Shown here: one piece after another, positions 5,457-29,651 of the stretch | How the letters are laid out: every line of letters starts with the position of its first letter | Position numbering within the stretch: the stretch's first letter is position 1 | From: Octopus vulgaris | Taxonomy: Eukaryota | Reading direction: 5' to 3' | Length of the DNA stretch: 64,000 nucleotides | NCBI GenBank assembly: GCA_951406725.2 | Contig: OX597819.1 | Span: forward strand, 62,062,001 to 62,126,000 | Program-made: the position numbers and the translations under genes | The notes under the pieces: model-generated | Databases searched by the model: none | What the model was told of the DNA's origin: nothing | The model's input: the letters and a program-made list of their open reading frames with translations, nothing else

Positions 5457-6590
5457 CAGTGGTTGGATAAAATAATGGAAACACTTTAAAATTTCAAACA
5501 AATTTATTATAATATGGGGCAGAACTACCTTTGGCAGTAATTACAGCTTGAATTCTCTGATGTATGGACTCATACAAAGTTTGAATTATTTCCAAAGGAA
5601 TTTTTGTCCATTCTTCAGCTAAAATAGTCACCAGTTCTTGTAGTGATGATGGTAGAGGATATCGACTCCTTACTTGTTTTTCTAAAATGCACCATAAATG
5701 TTCAATTATATTTAGGTCCAGTGACTATGGTGGCCAGATATGATGCTCGACTTCAGTAGAATGTTCCTCGTGCCATTCAGTAACAACTTTAGATCTGTGA
5801 ATTGGTGCATTATCATCCTGAAATATTGCATTTCCCTCTGGAAGCAGTTCTGCAACCATAGGATGAATGTGATCAGATAAAATGCTTAAATAGTCTTGAC
5901 TATTAATTCTGCCATGAAGGGAAAACATTAGGCTGGTGGATTTCCAAGATATAGCTTCCCAGATCATCACAGATCCTTCTCCATGTTTAACAGTTGGAAG
6001 AAAGAAACCTGGGTTAAATGCTTCTTTTGGCTGTCTCCACACATATACACGGCTGGTGGTTGGAAATAAGGTAAACGATGACACATCCGAGAAAATAAGA
6101 TTCTTCCATTGCTCCTGGGACCAATTCTGTAGGTTTTTACTCCACTCTAAACACTTCACAACATTTGTTTTTGAAAGTAGTGGCTTCCTGATTGCAACCC
6201 TCCTGTGAAATTCAGCTTTGTGCAGCTCCTGGCATACAGATTTTGTGAAAACTGGGTTCTCGAGGTGGTCATTAAGCTCTGCAGTAATTTTGTAAGCTAT
6301 ACTTTTGTGATCCTTTCTAACAATCTGTGTAAGAGTCTGACAGTCACTATCTGAAAGTTTTGGTCTTTTTCCAGACTTTTGTTTCAACGAGGAGGTTTTT
6401 CCTTCTTTCTCAAAGGCTGTCATTACTTTTGAGACGGTACTTCCTGATACACCATACATTTCGGCTCTTTTCATTACTCTAGCGCCTGCCATACGAGTAC
6501 CAACAATTTGACTTCTTTGAAAGTCCAATAGATCTGTCATTTTAATGAATTTTAATTACATTTTTCTGATATCTGAAAAGAAACATCATA
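5457..6590 (-). mobile_element. Tc1-like DNA transposon, one terminus retained
   Basis: TA|CAGTGGTTGGATAAAATAATGGAAACAC terminus at 5455-5484 downstream of the transposase. The matching TIR is not found beyond 6540 (sequence runs into an (AT)n tract). Confidence 0.8.
5494..6540 (-). pseudogene. Tc1/mariner transposase pseudogene (single premature stop; D..D(36)E spacing)
   Basis: 271-aa ORF with HTH region, GKRPKLS, FSDVSSF, TVKHGEGSVMIW and FQDDNAPIH. It continues in frame past TAG (5725-5727) as SLDLNIIEHLW...IQAVITAKG. Confidence 0.92.
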
Positions 6591-9801: not shown

Positions 9802-10496
9802 TACACACATACATATATATTGACATTTAAAGTATGTAGATAGGGTTATAACCCAAGCTGTGTCAGATGAATATTACTTTGCCTTTCATCCTCTCAGGGT
9901 CGATAAAATAAGTTCCAGCTGAGCAGTGGAGTCAATTTAATCAACTTACCCCCACCCCACACACTGCTGGCCTTGTGCCAAAATTTAAAATCAAAATAAC
10001 AAAGTCCTTGAAGATGACAAGCTGGCAGAATCATTAGCATGCCAGGCAAAATGATTAGTGGTATTCCATCCATTTTTATGTTCTGAGTTCAAATTTTACC
10101 AAGGTCAGCTTTGCCTTTCATCCACCAAGGTTGATTTAACCAACCTACCCACTGCTCGAAACTTACTGGCTTAGTGCCAAAGTGTAAAACCAATATAGCT
10201 AAGTTCACCATCCCAATATGGCTGTAGACCAGTGACTAAAAAAATCATTAAAACGAGTGAGGAAATACAATCAGATCTTAATTGGTTTCTGTAAGATTAA
10301 CAAACGACTCATTTTCCTCCACCACCAACATACTTCGTTTTATGTATTTATATATTTGCTACTAATATGCTCCAATGCATCTTTATTTTTATATCTGAAG
10401 AAACTGCCTATAGTTGGGCCACATTCCCAGTGAACAAAGAGTAGTAGCTACCACAATAAGTTGTGCGCTTTAAAAAGTAAAGAACATATATCCATA

Positions 10497-10737
10497 ATAG
10501 AGTAATCCCTCGACAATTGCAGGTGTTATGTCCCAAAACCTCCCACAGAAATATTTAAAATATAAAAAAATATAAATACCTATTGGCTGCAGAAACCCAC
10601 GATATACTGGGGAGTTTGTGATATAAATTTACATTTATTAGCCAGAAAAATCTGCTTCGTTCTGAGTGCATGATAGGTGAACTGTGTTGTATTGAGTGCA
10701 GAATAGGTGAACCATGATATGGTGAGGGATTACTGTA
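10497..10737. mobile_element. Tigger/pogo-type MITE (related pieces at ~40004-40088 and ~63713-63920)
   Basis: Termini (ta)gagtaatccctcgac ... gagggattactg(ta): inverted ends with TA flanks. Confidence 0.6.
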
Positions 10738-10747
10738 TATGTATATT

Positions 10748-11610
10748 CTTTTTTACTCAGTCACAAGGCCCGAAATGGGAGAAGGGGCCAGTCGATTAGA
10801 TCGACCCCAGTACTCAACTGGTACTTAATTTATTGACACCAAACAGATGAAAGGCAAAGTTGACCTCAGCGGAATTTGAACTCAGTGTGTAAAGACGAAT
10901 GAAATACCTCTAAGCATTTTGCCCGGCAAGCTAACATTTCTGCCAGCTCACTGCCTTATTTGAAACCAATATTCTTTTCTAGTCTAGTCACAAGGCCCAA
11001 AATTTTTGGGGAGAGAGCCAGTCGATTAAATCAACCCAAAAGGATAAAAGGCAAAGTCAACCTCAGCAGAATTTGAACTCAGAACAGAAAGACAAACGAA
11101 AAACCGCTAAGCATTTCGCTTGGCATGCTAACGTTTCTGCCAGCTCACCACCTTATTTGAAACCAATATTCATTTCTGCTCTAATCACAAGTCCTGAAAT
11201 TTTGGGGGAGGGATCCAGTCGATTAGATCGACCTCAGTACGCAACTGGTATTTAATTTACCAACCCCCAAAAGGATGAAAGGTAAATTCGACCTCAGTTG
11301 AATTTGAGCTTAAAGACAGATGAAATACTGCTAAGCATTTCACCCGGCGGGCTAATGTTTCTGCTATTTCTGCCTTATTTGAAACCAATATTCTTTTCTA
11401 CTCTAATCACAAGGCCTGAAATTTTGGGGGAGGGAACCAGTCAATTACATCGACCCCAGTACACAACTAGTACTTAATCTATCGACTCTGAAAGGATGAA
11501 AGGCAAAGTTGACCTCGGTGGAATTTGAACGTAGAACGTAAAGACAGACGAAATATCATTAAGTATTTTGCCCGGTGTGCTAACATTTCTGCCAGCTCTC
11601 TGCCTTACTG
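10748..11610 (-). mobile_element. Head-to-tail cluster of four tRNA-derived SINEs (family B, MetaSINE-like central domain)
   Basis: Repeated ~200-230 bp units with B-box gagttcaaattcc and gactttgcctttcatcctttcggggtcgataaattaagtacc on the minus strand. Confidence 0.75.
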
Positions 11611-12639
11611 TATATGTATATTAGAAAACCTGAGCTGTCAATAATGATGGCGGATGTTTTACTAAGCTTTGTTATAAGTACAGTGAAGGCACATGGTTTA
11701 GTGGTTAGGATATTTGGCTCACAATGGTACGGTCATGAGTTCAATTCTTGGTGGCACATTGTGTCTTCAAGCAAGACATTTCATTTCTTGTTGTTCTAGT
11801 CTATTAAGCTGGCAAAAATGACTTGTCCTTGTAATTCAAAGAGGTCAGCCTCATCACATTCTGTGTCTAGCTGAATCTCCCAGAGAACCATGTCAAGGGT
11901 ATATGTGTCTGTGGAGTGCTCAACCACATGCACATTAATTTCACGAGCAGGCTGTTCCATTGATTGAATGAACCTGGAATACTTGTCATTGTAACTGACA
12001 GGGTACCAGCTATAATTCCAGTATTTTGGTTTGTATGTATGAATATTAGATTTTTTTCCCATTAGAGCTATTGTGGAAAAATGTACATGATGATCATGCT
12101 AATGAAAGTATGAGAATATAGATATAAATGCCAAAATAACAGGAAAATAAGAAAATTATGCCTATCACACCCCAAATATTATACAGGTTTGATTACTTTT
12201 AATATGATTCACCTGCTCTGCTGAGGTTGACTTTGCCTTTCATCCTTTCAGGGTTGATAAATTAAGTACCAATTGTGTACTGGGGTTGATCTAATCAACT
12301 GGCTCCCTCCCCGGACATTTTGAGCCTTGTGACTAGAGTAGAAAAGAATATTGGTTTCAAATAAGGCGGTGAGCTGGCAGAAACGTTAGCACGCCAGGTG
12401 AAGCGCTTAGCAGTATTTCGTCTGTCTTTCCATTCTGAGTTCAAATTTGACTTTACTTTTCATCCTTTATATTTATATTTATATATGTATATTAAGGGCA
12501 CATAAATGCCTCACACAATTTGAAAAGCCCACCTCTTACATAGATATATAAGAGTGAACATCTCTACGTACTATGTTGGATACATTTGGTGTTTGTGTGG
12601 TATGTTGATTTTGTTTATTTTTATGTGTCTTGATTATGC

Positions 12640-12699
12640 CTGCACTGACGATTAGAAAGTGGATTATGTACACTAACTATGAAATCATATGATTTGTGG
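12640..12699 (+). ncRNA. Type-I hammerhead ribozyme motif (copy 1)
   Basis: ctgca-CTGACGA-t-TAG aa AGTG[loop]CACT aa CTA-t-GAA-ATCATATGAT(palindrome)-T-tgtgg. Stems I, II and III can all be drawn. Confidence 0.6.
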
Positions 12700-13123
12700 C
12701 TGAATCTGTTTTTAAGGATTGGCTTCAAAGGTTGATTACCTCGCATTCAGTACACTATGCATTTATTATGGTCGTTTTGACTTTAAGAGTCCCTAACAGC
12801 ATGAGGCATTTACGTGTAGTAATGCCCTTAATATAAATACATATATTTAAAGGAAATAATTATAAATTTTTCCCTTATGAGGTTTTCACACTGACTACTT
12901 GATAAATTCTTATAAAGATTTTATCCTATTTTAAATTTTAAATTTAATGGGAATATATTCAGTGCTGAATTATTCTGAATATACACATTTACCGAAATGC
13001 AATTTGAACCCCCCACCTCTTACATAGATATATAAGAGTGAATATCTCTATGTACTATGTTGGATACATTTGGTGTTTGTCTGGTATGTTGATTTTGTTT
13101 ATTTTTATGTGACTTGATTATGC

Positions 13124-13183
13124 CTGCACTGACGATTAAAGAGTGCATTTTGTGCACTAATTATGAAATCATATGATTTGTGG
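13124..13183 (+). ncRNA. Type-I hammerhead ribozyme motif (copy 2)
   Basis: ctgca-CTGACGA-t-TAA ag AGTGCA[ttttg]TGCACT aa TTA-t-GAA-ATCATATGAT-T-tgtgg. Confidence 0.6.
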
Positions 13184-13699
13184 TTGAATCTGTTTTTAAG
13201 GGTTGGCTTCAAAGGTTGCATTCCCTCATACATATTTGTTTAAAAGTATATAAATATACTCATAATGGTTTTTTTTTAAAACACATGCATTACAAAAACA
13301 CACACATCTGAGTCTGTCAAAGGTCAACCAACACAATGGAATGTAACTCCTTTCTGAAAATTCTCTCCTGATGAAATACCCAATTAACCACTTTCAATCT
13401 GAAACTTTTGAATTAATTTTTATTTAATTTGATTTCTCTAATTGAACTGAGTGGATATGGAAATGGCTATAGGGATAAAAATTTCCTAGGCCAAGGGCCT
13501 GAAGAAAATTCAAATTGAGCCCCACCTGCAAGGCCACATACTGTTTATCTTGATATGAGATCACCATGCCATGCACATATGATTGTAATGCATGTGCCTG
13601 GTGTACCCTTACCAGACGGGTAGTCATGATAGGTGTATTGGGCTTTGTATATTTGTACCCCAGTGTCACTTTGACTGCATGCGCTGCTCTCTTGCTCAA

Positions 13700-13799
13700 T
13701 AATGATAATGATGGTGATGATGATGATGATGATGATAATGACATCGATGACAACAATGATGATGATGATGATGATGACATCGATGACAACATCAACGAC

Positions 13800-13839
<40 letters not shown>

Positions 13840-13850
13840 ACTATTATTAT
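13700..13850. repeat. (GAT)n trinucleotide repeat
   Basis: Direct inspection. Confidence 0.95.
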
Positions 13851-14044
13851 TGTTATTAACTTTTCATTTTCTGTCTAGTCCAAGGTTATGACTTGTTTGT
13901 CCACTTTCTGTTTGTAAATACTTTTTAACTGCTTTCTCAGGCATTTATGCACATTTAGAAATTATATGTACCATGTTGCAATAAAATATACTTTTGTAAG
14001 ATATTTTGCTAATTAGATTATCTGTCTAGTTATTTATCCTTCTG

Positions 14045-14213
<169 letters not shown>

Positions 14214-14439
14214 TTCTGTTAACCTATTTCTGTTGTCTATATCTGTTCTGAGTCATCTGTGAATGCATGTATTTATGAATCTTGTCTATCTATCTATCTA
14301 GCTGGCTTACTAGTTAACTGTCTTTCTATCTATGTCTTCAACCACCTATGCATATATTTTGTTATGTATGTATGGATGTATGTATGAATGTATGTGTGTC
14401 TATGCAAATATGTGTGTGCATGTGTGTGTGTGTGTGTGT

Positions 14440-15113
14440 GATCATCATCATCATCGTTTAACATTCACTTTCCATGCTAGCATGGGTTGGACGATTTGAC
14501 TGAGGACTGGCAAACCAGATGGCTGCACCAGGCTCCAGTCTGATCTGGTGGAGTTTCTACAGATGGATGCCCTTCCTAACGCCAACCACTCTGAAAGTGT
14601 AGTGGGTGCTTTTACGTGCCACCAGCACGAGAGCCAGTCAGGTGGTACTGGCAATGGCCATGCTTAAATGGTGTTTTTTCACGTGCCACCTGCACAGGAG
14701 CCAGTCCAGCAGCACTGACAATGACCTCACTCGAATGTTTTTTGACGTGCAACTGGCATAAGTGCCAGTAAGGCGACACTAGTAATGATCATGCTTGAAT
14801 GGTGCATTTTACATGCCACTGGCACAGAAGCCAGCCAGCTGCTCTGGCAACGATCATGCTTGGATGTTACTCTTAATGCTCTACTGGCCCATGTTTCACT
14901 GCCATGTAGCGTGGCTGTTCGTACACATACGTTATACAGTCTACCTTTTACTCTGAGCGAGAGGCCCTTTGTCACCAGCAGAAGTAAGAGCTCTCTGAGC
15001 TTCGCCCAAGCTATTCTTATTCTAGGAGTTACACTTTCAGCGCACTCTCCCCCACTACTGACTTGGTCACCTAGGTAACAGAAGCTATCAACTACTTCTA
15101 GTTTTTCTCCCTG
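14440..15113 (-). mobile_element. RTE LINE fragment (RT C-terminal piece + 3'UTR)
   Basis: KGLSLRVKGRLYNVCVRTATLHGSETW (14727-14975) and LEVVDSFCYLGDQVSSGG; (CAT)n end at ~14440. Confidence 0.85.
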
Positions 15114-15511
15114 GAATATTTATAAAAGAACACAAACTGGGTTTAAAATTCACAACAGCTGTTTCAGCAGCATTTATTGATGAATGCTTAGGTTACATCA
15201 TGTCAAAAACTTGCCACCTTCAAGTGACTTCAAATAAACAGAGTGGTAAGTTAGAAAATTTATCATGTTCCATAAGGAAACAAATTAAGTTTTCAGAAGA
15301 ATTGTAGAATTATAACGCCCACTTACCAAAATCCTATATATTTATATAGTAATTCCTCTATTTAGCTGTATATGTTTATGTATATTTACATGTTATGAGT
15401 GGCTGTATGATAAGAATCTTGCTTCCCAACCCCATGGTCCCAGGTTCAGTCCCACTGTATAGCATCTTGGGCAAGTGTCATATACTATAGCCTCGAGATT
15501 GGTAGACAGAA

Positions 15512-15544
<33 letters not shown>

Positions 15545-16025
15545 TGTATGTATGTATGTATGTATGTATGTATGTATGTATGTATGTATGTGTGTGTGTG
15601 TGTGTATATATGTATGTATTTGTGTGTCTACATTTGTCTACCTACCATCACTTGACAACTAATGTTTGTGTGTTTATGGTTCCATAACTTAGCAGAACAA
15701 AAGGAACCAATAGAATAAGTACAAGGCTTACAAAGAATAAGTCATGTGGTCCATTTGTTTGACTAAAGGCAGTGCTCTACCATGGCCATAGTCAAATGAC
15801 TAAAACAAGTAAAAGAATAAAAGAATATGTGCATGTATGTATATATGTATGTACGTACGTATGTATGTATGTATGTATGTATGTATGTATGTATGTATGT
15901 ATGTATGTATGCATGTATGTATGCATGCATGTATGCATATAAGTATCTATCTATCTATCCATCCATCCATCCATCTATCTGTCGGTCTATCTATGTATCT
16001 ATCTGTCTGTCTATCTATGTATCTA

Positions 16026-28773: not shown

Positions 28774-29124
28774 GGATCTTTACCTTTTGACCTACAGATT
28801 TAAAAAATAAATGTTTGTAACTAAACACTTTCAAACTTTGGACACTGGTAGAATGTGTCTTATAAAATATCTTTTACTCTTAGCATTTTTGAGAAAAACT
28901 TATATTTACGAAGTTATTTCACATTAAAGTTCTTGTATTTCGGTAATTTCAACCAATCAATGACGTGTATTCAGCTGAATAAAATTACTGCTGTTGTTTG
29001 TCAACAACAACTATCAGCGGTGTATTTTTCATTTGTCACTATTATTTATGACATCATTCGTGTGTTTGTACTGGTTTTAAGGTTTTAGGGTATGGGTTAG
29101 GGTTTTAGGGTCAAGGTTTTAGGG

Positions 29125-29155
<31 letters not shown>

Positions 29156-29651
29156 CTAGGGTTTTAGGGTTAGGGTTAGGGTTTTAGGGTTAGAGTTTTA
29201 GGGTTAGGGTTAGGGTTTAGAGTTAGGGTTAGGGTTTTAGGGTTAGGGTTTTAGGGTTAGGGTTAGGGTTTTAAGGTTAGGGTTTTAGGGGTAGGGTTTT
29301 AGGGTTAGGGTTTTAGGGGTAGGGTTTTAGGGTTAGGGTTAGGGTTAAGGTTTTAGGGTTAGGGTTAGGGTTGTCATAAATAACAGTGACAAACGAAAAA
29401 TACACCGCTGGAAGTTCTTGTTGACAAACAACAGCAGTAATTTTATTCAGCTGAATACACGCCATTGGTTGGTTGAAATTACCGAAATACTACAATTTTA
29501 ACGTGAAATAACTTCCTAAATATAAGCTTTTCTCAAAAACGCTAAGAGTAAAAGATGTTTTATATGACACATTCTACCAGTATATGAAGTTTGAAAGTGT
29601 TTAGATACAAAAAATTCTTTTTTAAATCTGTAGGTCAAAAGGTAAAAATCC
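28774..29651. mobile_element. Foldback/MITE with ~280-bp terminal inverted arms enclosing a telomere-type array; 7-bp TSD aaaagtt
   Basis: Arms 28774-29053 and 29372-29651 are reverse complements (GGATCTTTACC.../...GGTAAAAATCC), and aaaagtt flanks both sides. Confidence 0.9.
29073..29372 (+). repeat. Interstitial telomere-like array of TTAGGG/TTTAGGG/TTTTAGGG
   Basis: Directly visible ~300-bp G-rich array. Confidence 0.97.

Follow-up and report, generated by a model that had tools for sequence, protein, structure and literature searches.

A 64,000-nt stretch of the Octopus vulgaris genome (the window) carries two direct repeats, each with what looks like a hammerhead ribozyme, and the two motifs differ by a paired substitution in stem II. 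What kind of element is this, how did it enter the locus, and how did its two hammerheads come to differ? In the explanation that we consider very probable, the locus holds a decayed copy of a dispersed, non-coding type I hammerhead family, likely a non-LTR retrozyme pasted into TA-rich DNA by a Penelope-like element (PLE), in which helix II of the second hammerhead comes from another subfamily.

Hammerhead layouts in the tandem repeat

The direct repeats, at 12516-12734 and 13000-13218, are 93% identical and start 484 nt apart, as an earlier reading of the letters (the sequence-only reading) had described, and the homology of the second extends to 13227. Exactly two matches to CTGANGA-N5-35-GAAATCATATGAT occur in the 64-kb window (12645-12693 and 13129-13177), against a mean of 0.00 matches per shuffled window in 100 shuffles. 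Both matches hold all 11 core bases and U at H17, with a stem I of CTGCA/TGTGG, a perfect 10-nt palindrome, ATCATATGAT, in helix III, and AUU cleavage triplets at 12692-12694 and 13176-13178; an AGTGCA/TGCACT stem is found in copy 2. The type I layout proposed earlier is therefore present in both copies, and self-cleavage is predicted. The motifs had also been called minimal, which they are not: past an internal loop, GATT and AATC (12632-12635/12703-12706) pair to prolong helix I, and helix II is made up of 3 bp, a 2 × 2 loop and a distal stem. The left boundary is an inverted spacer copy, as had been noticed, but it is longer than was thought. The parts of the element are as follows (A and B denote subfamilies, E1 and E2 fixed arm ends, both treated below).

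12472..12513, minus strand: inverted left arm, monomer positions 107-157 with 8 nt deleted
12516..12694, plus strand: first unit, 5'-truncated (monomer 306-484), subfamily B at 8/8 diagnostic sites
12632..12706, plus strand: hammerhead 1 (type I), by layout, pattern match and family comparison
12632-12635/12703-12706, plus strand: hammerhead 1 helix Ib
12640-12644/12695-12699, plus strand: hammerhead 1 helix Ia
12645-12651, plus strand: hammerhead 1 CUGACGA
12681-12684, plus strand: hammerhead 1 GAAA; helix II of subfamily B
12684-12693, plus strand: hammerhead 1 palindrome; predicted cut after 12694
12695..13178, plus strand: predicted cut-to-cut monomer, 484 nt; backbone B at 10/10 sites, stem II A at 5/5
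12828..12850, plus strand: internal copy of E1 (~monomer 134-155), the stop site, in (TA)n, for one arm of family insertions
12926..12946, plus strand: internal copy of E2 (~monomer 232-252), stop site of the other arm
13116..13190, plus strand: hammerhead 2 (type I), intact core at 13129-13135 and 13165-13168
13139..13161, plus strand: minimal subfamily-A tract, helix II of hammerhead 2, 5/5 diagnostic sites
13168-13177, plus strand: hammerhead 2 palindrome; predicted cut after 13178
13179..13227, plus strand: start of a third unit (monomer 1-48), ending ~190 nt short of the expected E2

A scan with hammerhead models had been suggested as a check. An Rfam scan of positions 10000-16000 gave 22 matches up to E = 5, none of them to a hammerhead family, and the identification as hammerheads is therefore based on layout and family comparison. 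Local folding gives the two window motifs z-scores of −0.7 and −1.0, and in the two copies the active fold is less stable than the minimum-energy fold by 9.3 and 5.7 kcal/mol; the active fold of the family consensus likewise differs from its minimum-energy fold. The computed energy of the palindrome duplex is −9.6 kcal/mol versus +1.1 kcal/mol for the monomer hairpin, which fits the dimer cleavage described for metazoan hammerheads (PMC4209133; this and the other papers on retrozymes and PLEs are cited from excerpts).

A dispersed non-coding family

Searching the genome (2.8 Gb, 227 contigs) with the whole element gave 2473 first-look candidates, of which 40 were scored; a 22-nt helix II/III pattern had 185 exact matches, and its reversed control had 0. 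Thirty loci were taken from the whole-element search, 30 from the 185 pattern matches (these being selected on part of helix II/III) and 30 by an E2 arm, coming to 58 + 23 without duplicates. A BLAST of the unit and a consensus had been proposed in the sequence-only reading; the unit belongs to a dispersed family. Segments of at least 150 nt have a median identity of 92.8% to the nearer consensus (85-98%, n = 85), so that the sampled family is old. GC is 0.30-0.33, and the ~484-nt hammerhead spacing recurs in L002, L003, L005 and L007. The longest stop-to-stop frame of the doubled family consensus is 56 aa, in keeping with the lack of a long open reading frame reported earlier. Seven loci have in common a ~440-bp flank, which, judging by resemblance, is probably an unrelated common short repeat.

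The hammerhead core is constrained. In 29 other loci, chosen through whole-element BLAST, mismatches number 9 in 410 over the 11 core positions and 883 in 13756 over a background of non-CpG, non-diagnostic positions (permutation p = 0.0025); the CTGANGA and GAAA boxes are better kept than their flanks, one of the two points on which the earlier reading had staked its hammerhead call. The 23 loci picked without the motif point the same way (core 2/64, background 81/1189), but they are too few, with ~6 of them reaching the hammerhead. Across 79 hammerhead copies, position 17 is C in 27, U in 27, A in 21 and G in none, with 4 unread. Four stem positions vary on both sides: one helix II pair is A-U in 51 and G-C in 14 of 69 copies, the distal helix II pair is C-G in 50, U-A in 5 and G-A in 13 of 76, the 10.1-11.1 pair at the helix II base is U-U in 64 and G-C in 4 of 73, and the helix Ib pair is U-A in 61 and C-G in 4 of 66, the latter a U-A to C-G change in 4 copies. 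This variation supports the helices across the 79 copies, as far as sequence comparison goes; the pair counts follow subfamilies and are not independent events, because the copies share ancestry, and the two-sided changes stand for a handful of events. An origin by chance, with a local duplication that happens to contain a hammerhead-like pattern, would agree with the Rfam result and the weak z-scores of the motifs, but the dispersed copies, the conserved core, the two-sided stem changes and the absence of G at position 17 (0/75) exclude it, and we give it hardly any credence.

As a circle, the consensus folds strongly (z = −5.6 for A and −7.3 for B, 40 shuffles each), and the window monomer folds weakly better than shuffles (z = −1.8 linear, −2.1 circular). 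Among the listed holders of element sequence there was no RNA dataset; one RNA run contains two short family pieces, which speak neither for nor against expression, and in contigs a monomer junction equals the genomic tandem junction.

In both window hammerheads, pair 10.1-11.1 is U-U instead of the standard G-C, and this had been attributed to CpG decay that inactivated the copies. The attribution fails: U-U is found in the 64 of 73 copies counted above, and a G-to-U change at 10.1 is no CpG change. Since U-U is the family norm, it was already in the source elements that amplified, and lineages that kept amplifying carried it. In axolotl, a retrozyme ribozyme with U-U at the helix II base (HHR_Amex2) is active, with weak cleavage of the monomer and stronger cleavage of the dimer (PMC7229834). 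CpG decay did turn the consensus G-C of helix Ia into G-U in both window copies. A further subfamily, C (L005, L018, L019 and L045), has G10.1, with G-C in 4 motifs and G-U in 1, and its motifs offer a natural control for the U-U variant.

By its sequence, the element has the features of known animal non-LTR retrozymes, ends other than LTR-type ones among them, with cleavage and RNA circles as predictions. The earlier assignment to a retrozyme or Penelope-type mobile repeat holds up in that the element is non-coding and hammerhead-bearing, its monomer measures ~484 nt and its helix III is palindromic, which suits cleavage as a dimer. With metazoan non-LTR retrozymes (PMC7229834; bioRxiv 10.64898/2026.07.22.740005; excerpts of both), it shares a non-coding head-to-tail repeat with one type I hammerhead per unit, GC of ~33%, a strongly folded monomer, a palindromic helix III loop and co-occurring PLEs. 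The 484-nt monomer is longer than the 170-400 nt of the retrozymes in PMC7229834, yet inside the 51-972 bp range of bioRxiv 10.64898/2026.07.22.740005. Metazoan retrozymes form long arrays, whereas the sampled octopus copies mostly have <1.5 units, and the octopus helix II is longer and bipartite. Circular RNAs have been shown for the coral, mussel and axolotl retrozymes (PMC7229834); for the octopus family, cleavage and circles are predictions. It counts against the retrozyme explanation that 8/9 predicted Xenopus retrozyme dimers gave no cleavage in vitro, while 1 cleaved (bioRxiv 10.64898/2026.07.22.740005). Plant LTR retrozymes are likewise non-autonomous, with two hammerheads bounding a monomer, but have type III hammerheads, LTRs, PBS/PPT and 4-bp TSDs, in contrast to the type I motifs and PLE-like ends of the octopus element (excerpts of PMC7229834 and bioRxiv 10.64898/2026.07.22.740005). 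Cephalopods are not among the examples in PMC7229834, where octopus and cephalopod have 0 occurrences in the main text. Among the papers listed on hammerheads or Penelope elements in octopuses, none was seen to describe hammerheads or retrozymes from an octopus, although supplements may list the repeat under another name; the words ribozyme, hammerhead and retrozyme have 0 occurrences in the main text of a 2026 paper that annotates octopus repeats (PMC13282606).

Insertion footprint and a probable link to Penelope-like elements

How the family inserts can be read from its arm ends. Among 95 ends tallied, 40 lie at a fixed end, E1 (~+140-155 after the cut site), 33 at another, E2 (~+235-250), and 22 elsewhere; arms usually run into (TA)n. 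At the 28 loci with both strands represented, 14 consist of one E1 and one E2 arm, 3 of an E1 arm and a second arm ending at or just before E1, and 11, the window included, are complex or truncated; no locus among the 28 has two clean E2 arms. The two end sites were noticed first and arm pairing was tallied afterwards. In the 23 new loci picked by an E2 arm, 17 are two-armed with the second arm inverted, and the other arm stops at E1 in 15.

The window copy has an inverted E1 arm at the left, its outer end being the fixed end E1 and grading into the TA-rich flank, and a right arm that ends at +48, matching neither fixed end. Contigs from three runs (three organism labels) cross the right junction with 1, 1 and 4 differences, so this end is no assembly error; the missing right end is probably due to a later deletion. 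The right flank (13228-13290) was considered as an E1 or E2 remnant and rejected, as 47% of shuffles reach its score. Relative to consensus B, the window monomer differs at 26/458 non-CpG and 9/26 CpG positions. With ~6% divergence outside CpGs and a truncated right end, the copy is probably a fossil rather than a source, and, as a fossil of a known class, its direct value is modest. A two-age model, in which a new copy was placed in register into an older one, was set aside, there being no clear step in divergence along the element. To the left lies a very high-copy ~220-bp repeat in partial tandems (10839-11622 and 12217-12447); an inverted copy of it adjoins the hammerhead element, which appears to be set in the TA-rich end of this repeat.

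This footprint resembles that of PLEs, for which excerpts of PMC8557442 describe insertions with a partial tandem, an inverted 5' copy, a tail and a (TA)n bias, and excerpts of PMC11167929 describe, in the anole, a tail that marks two internal reverse transcription start sites and uncleaved RNA as the main template. Endonuclease-bearing (EN+) PLEs and the octopus family have in common the partial tandem, the inverted 5' arm, 5' truncation, two fixed internal ends (the tail), (TA)n targets, a hammerhead upstream of the ends and a long helix II (excerpts of PMC4209133, PMC8557442 and PMC11167929). According to the same excerpts, EN+ PLEs differ in carrying an RT/GIY-YIG ORF, which the octopus family is without, and in a tail of 30-40 nt versus ~95 nt; the excess of this E1-E2 distance over the PLE tail speaks against our preferred explanation. 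Moreover, the octopus ends are AT-rich and target-like, unlike the start site of the anole PLE, which is a non-homologous loop rich in AC, and PLE hammerheads have G10.1-C11.1 where most octopus copies have U-U.

GIY-YIG matches are plentiful in the octopus genome (6136 candidates, with 148 of the 150 scored matching), and intact PLEs with RT and GIY-YIG are present. An intact 781-aa frame has GIY-YIG above the cut-off and RVT_1 at 28.9 bits, just under the cut-off of 29.6, and the PLE copy examined has a (TA)n end and a partial tandem. Eight stretches (L091-L098, e.g. L094:1626-3968, plus strand) belong to a young intact PLE family with RT and GIY-YIG, 97-99.8% alike apart from one at 91%. 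Near the 3' end of L091 there is a minimal hammerhead-like motif, a U3-A8 variant.

Might the repeat itself be a terminal repeat (pLTR) that belongs to an autonomous PLE, with an ORF further out than the 5'-truncated copies reach? In PLE pLTRs, hammerheads typically have a long helix II and one more base following A9 (PMC4209133), the footprint is PLE-like and most sampled copies are 5'-truncated. Copies that extend upstream of a hammerhead, however, continue into monomer spacer and then another hammerhead (e.g. L002, L003, L005, L007, L018 and L044), and monomer BLAST and junction reading found no coding sequence upstream in the 58 + 23 loci, the consensus frame being at most 56 aa. As a PLE terminal repeat, the monomer was absent from the 30 of 148 GIY-YIG loci and the 8 full-length stretches of one PLE family that were searched; in these 38 PLE stretches it is unmatched, bar one fragment in L068. 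That fragment (L068:96-431, on the strand of the GIY-YIG match) is an 82% relative of the E1-E2 region, two-armed, with one E1 and one E2 end. It was rejected as a link to a parent PLE, because it lies ~800 bp from the PLE piece and was judged a neighbouring insertion. On balance we consider a pLTR of an autonomous element improbable.

Our preferred reading is thus still that of a non-coding retrozyme pasted by a PLE. Besides the E1-E2 distance, the Rfam result, the energy gap between active and minimum-energy folds, the weak folding of the window monomer, the right end at +48 and the want of a parent PLE in the 30 GIY-YIG loci and 8 full-length stretches count against it. Animal retrozymes have been argued to derive from PLE pLTRs (bioRxiv 10.64898/2026.07.22.740005), and papers, as far as their excerpts go, tie the two by co-occurrence and pLTR homology. 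The octopus family adds sequence support of another kind, suggesting that animal retrozymes insert with a PLE footprint, one fixed end per arm, in (TA)n. Under such a mechanism, transcripts of master copies would be longer than one unit, and the hammerheads, paired as dimers via the 10-nt palindrome, would cleave them and set free a strongly folded monomer in linear or circular form. At a (TA)n target, both strands would be nicked by an RT/GIY-YIG protein from a PLE, and reverse transcription would start inside, at E1 on one strand and at E2 on the other, giving a direct and an inverted arm. At the window locus, the direct arm would have run beyond one unit, and a later deletion would probably have taken the right end.

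A mosaic of two subfamilies

Fifteen sites tell subfamily A from B, ten in the backbone and five in helix II. In the window element, all 10 backbone sites are of type B in every unit that covers them. In helix II, hammerhead 1 is B at 5/5 sites and hammerhead 2 is A at 5/5, so that the window copy is, on these diagnostic sites, a recombinant of two subfamilies. The paired stem II difference, TAG/CTA in copy 1 and TAA/TTA in copy 2, had been read as a compensatory change. The pairing of the difference is real, but it did not arise as a change from one copy to the other: the pair is fixed as A-U in subfamily A (51 copies) and as G-C in B/D (14 copies). The mosaic is the only feature specific to the window locus. 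No listed contig joins helix II of hammerhead 2 to the unique flank; the mosaic rests on the assembly and on a private G at 13141, found at ~100× in one run, whose unique flank contig has a depth of 68.

Elsewhere in the family, helix II types match in 13 of 15 elements with two typeable hammerheads (among the 13 are L006 and L018, each readable in part; L054, taken to be two separate insertions, was excluded). The two discordant elements are the window and L025, which has A and D hammerheads with a ~240-bp interruption and may be two events. Combining backbone sites 27/35/36 with the helix II pair gives all four combinations, A/A, A/B (L003), B/B and B/A (the window and L027), which points to recombination within the family; L027, in which an A helix II stands on a B backbone, is a single recombinant.

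The register of the tandem bears on how it was written. Reverse transcription round one circular monomer RNA would produce copies that are head-to-tail, in register and longer than a unit, as is observed; the 13/15 agreement of helix II types, the strong folding of the consensus as a circle and the retrozyme circles of coral, mussel and axolotl (PMC7229834, excerpt) agree with it. Copying of one circle cannot alone explain the window locus, because its hammerheads belong to different subfamilies: they differ at 5/5 subfamily sites, and one circle would need a later event. The same tandem could come from a linear read-through dimer or a template jump, and in the anole PLE system the main template is uncleaved RNA (PMC11167929, excerpt). 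We therefore regard a rolling-circle origin as conceivable, while leaning against it.

Alternatively, the element may have become mosaic once it was in place, either through gene conversion by an A-type copy elsewhere or through ectopic recombination of two genomic copies. The A-type tract is short (at least 23 nt), and the window units share non-consensus bases at monomer positions 321, 384, 406 and 3, which flank the tract on both sides, as if from one template; the right end is abnormal, and ectopic recombination could explain the truncation too. On the other hand, three of the four shared bases are CpG sites, open to parallel decay, the combination of B backbone and A helix II recurs at L027, and L025 has two unlike hammerheads. 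A single switch between a B RNA and an L027-type RNA would suffice, whereas conversion needs two borders. An event after insertion nevertheless keeps a substantial chance, somewhat short of even.

In the explanation that we prefer, reverse transcription most likely changed from one RNA template to a related one, at this locus or in a source element, and so brought in the helix II of subfamily A. The broader proposition, that the tandem units of animal retrozymes are not in every case copied from a single RNA circle, that the PLE reverse transcriptase can jump between monomer RNAs and that ribozyme modules are swapped between subfamilies, is rather unlikely on present evidence and is put forward tentatively. 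If it were true, the window (B + A), L025 (A + D) and L027 would be footprints of module swapping, and mixed-subfamily double hammerheads could pair via the invariant 10-nt palindrome. The mosaic in any case allows a cheap genome-wide test of whether tandem units derive from one circle or from several RNA templates.

Two other features of the window were noted. A 276-aa open frame at 5725-6555 (minus strand) resembles a Tc1/mariner transposase in its motifs. At 29077-29372, ~300 bp of a degenerate (TTAGGG)n array with TTTTAGGG units lie inside the long contig and form an interstitial telomere-like repeat.
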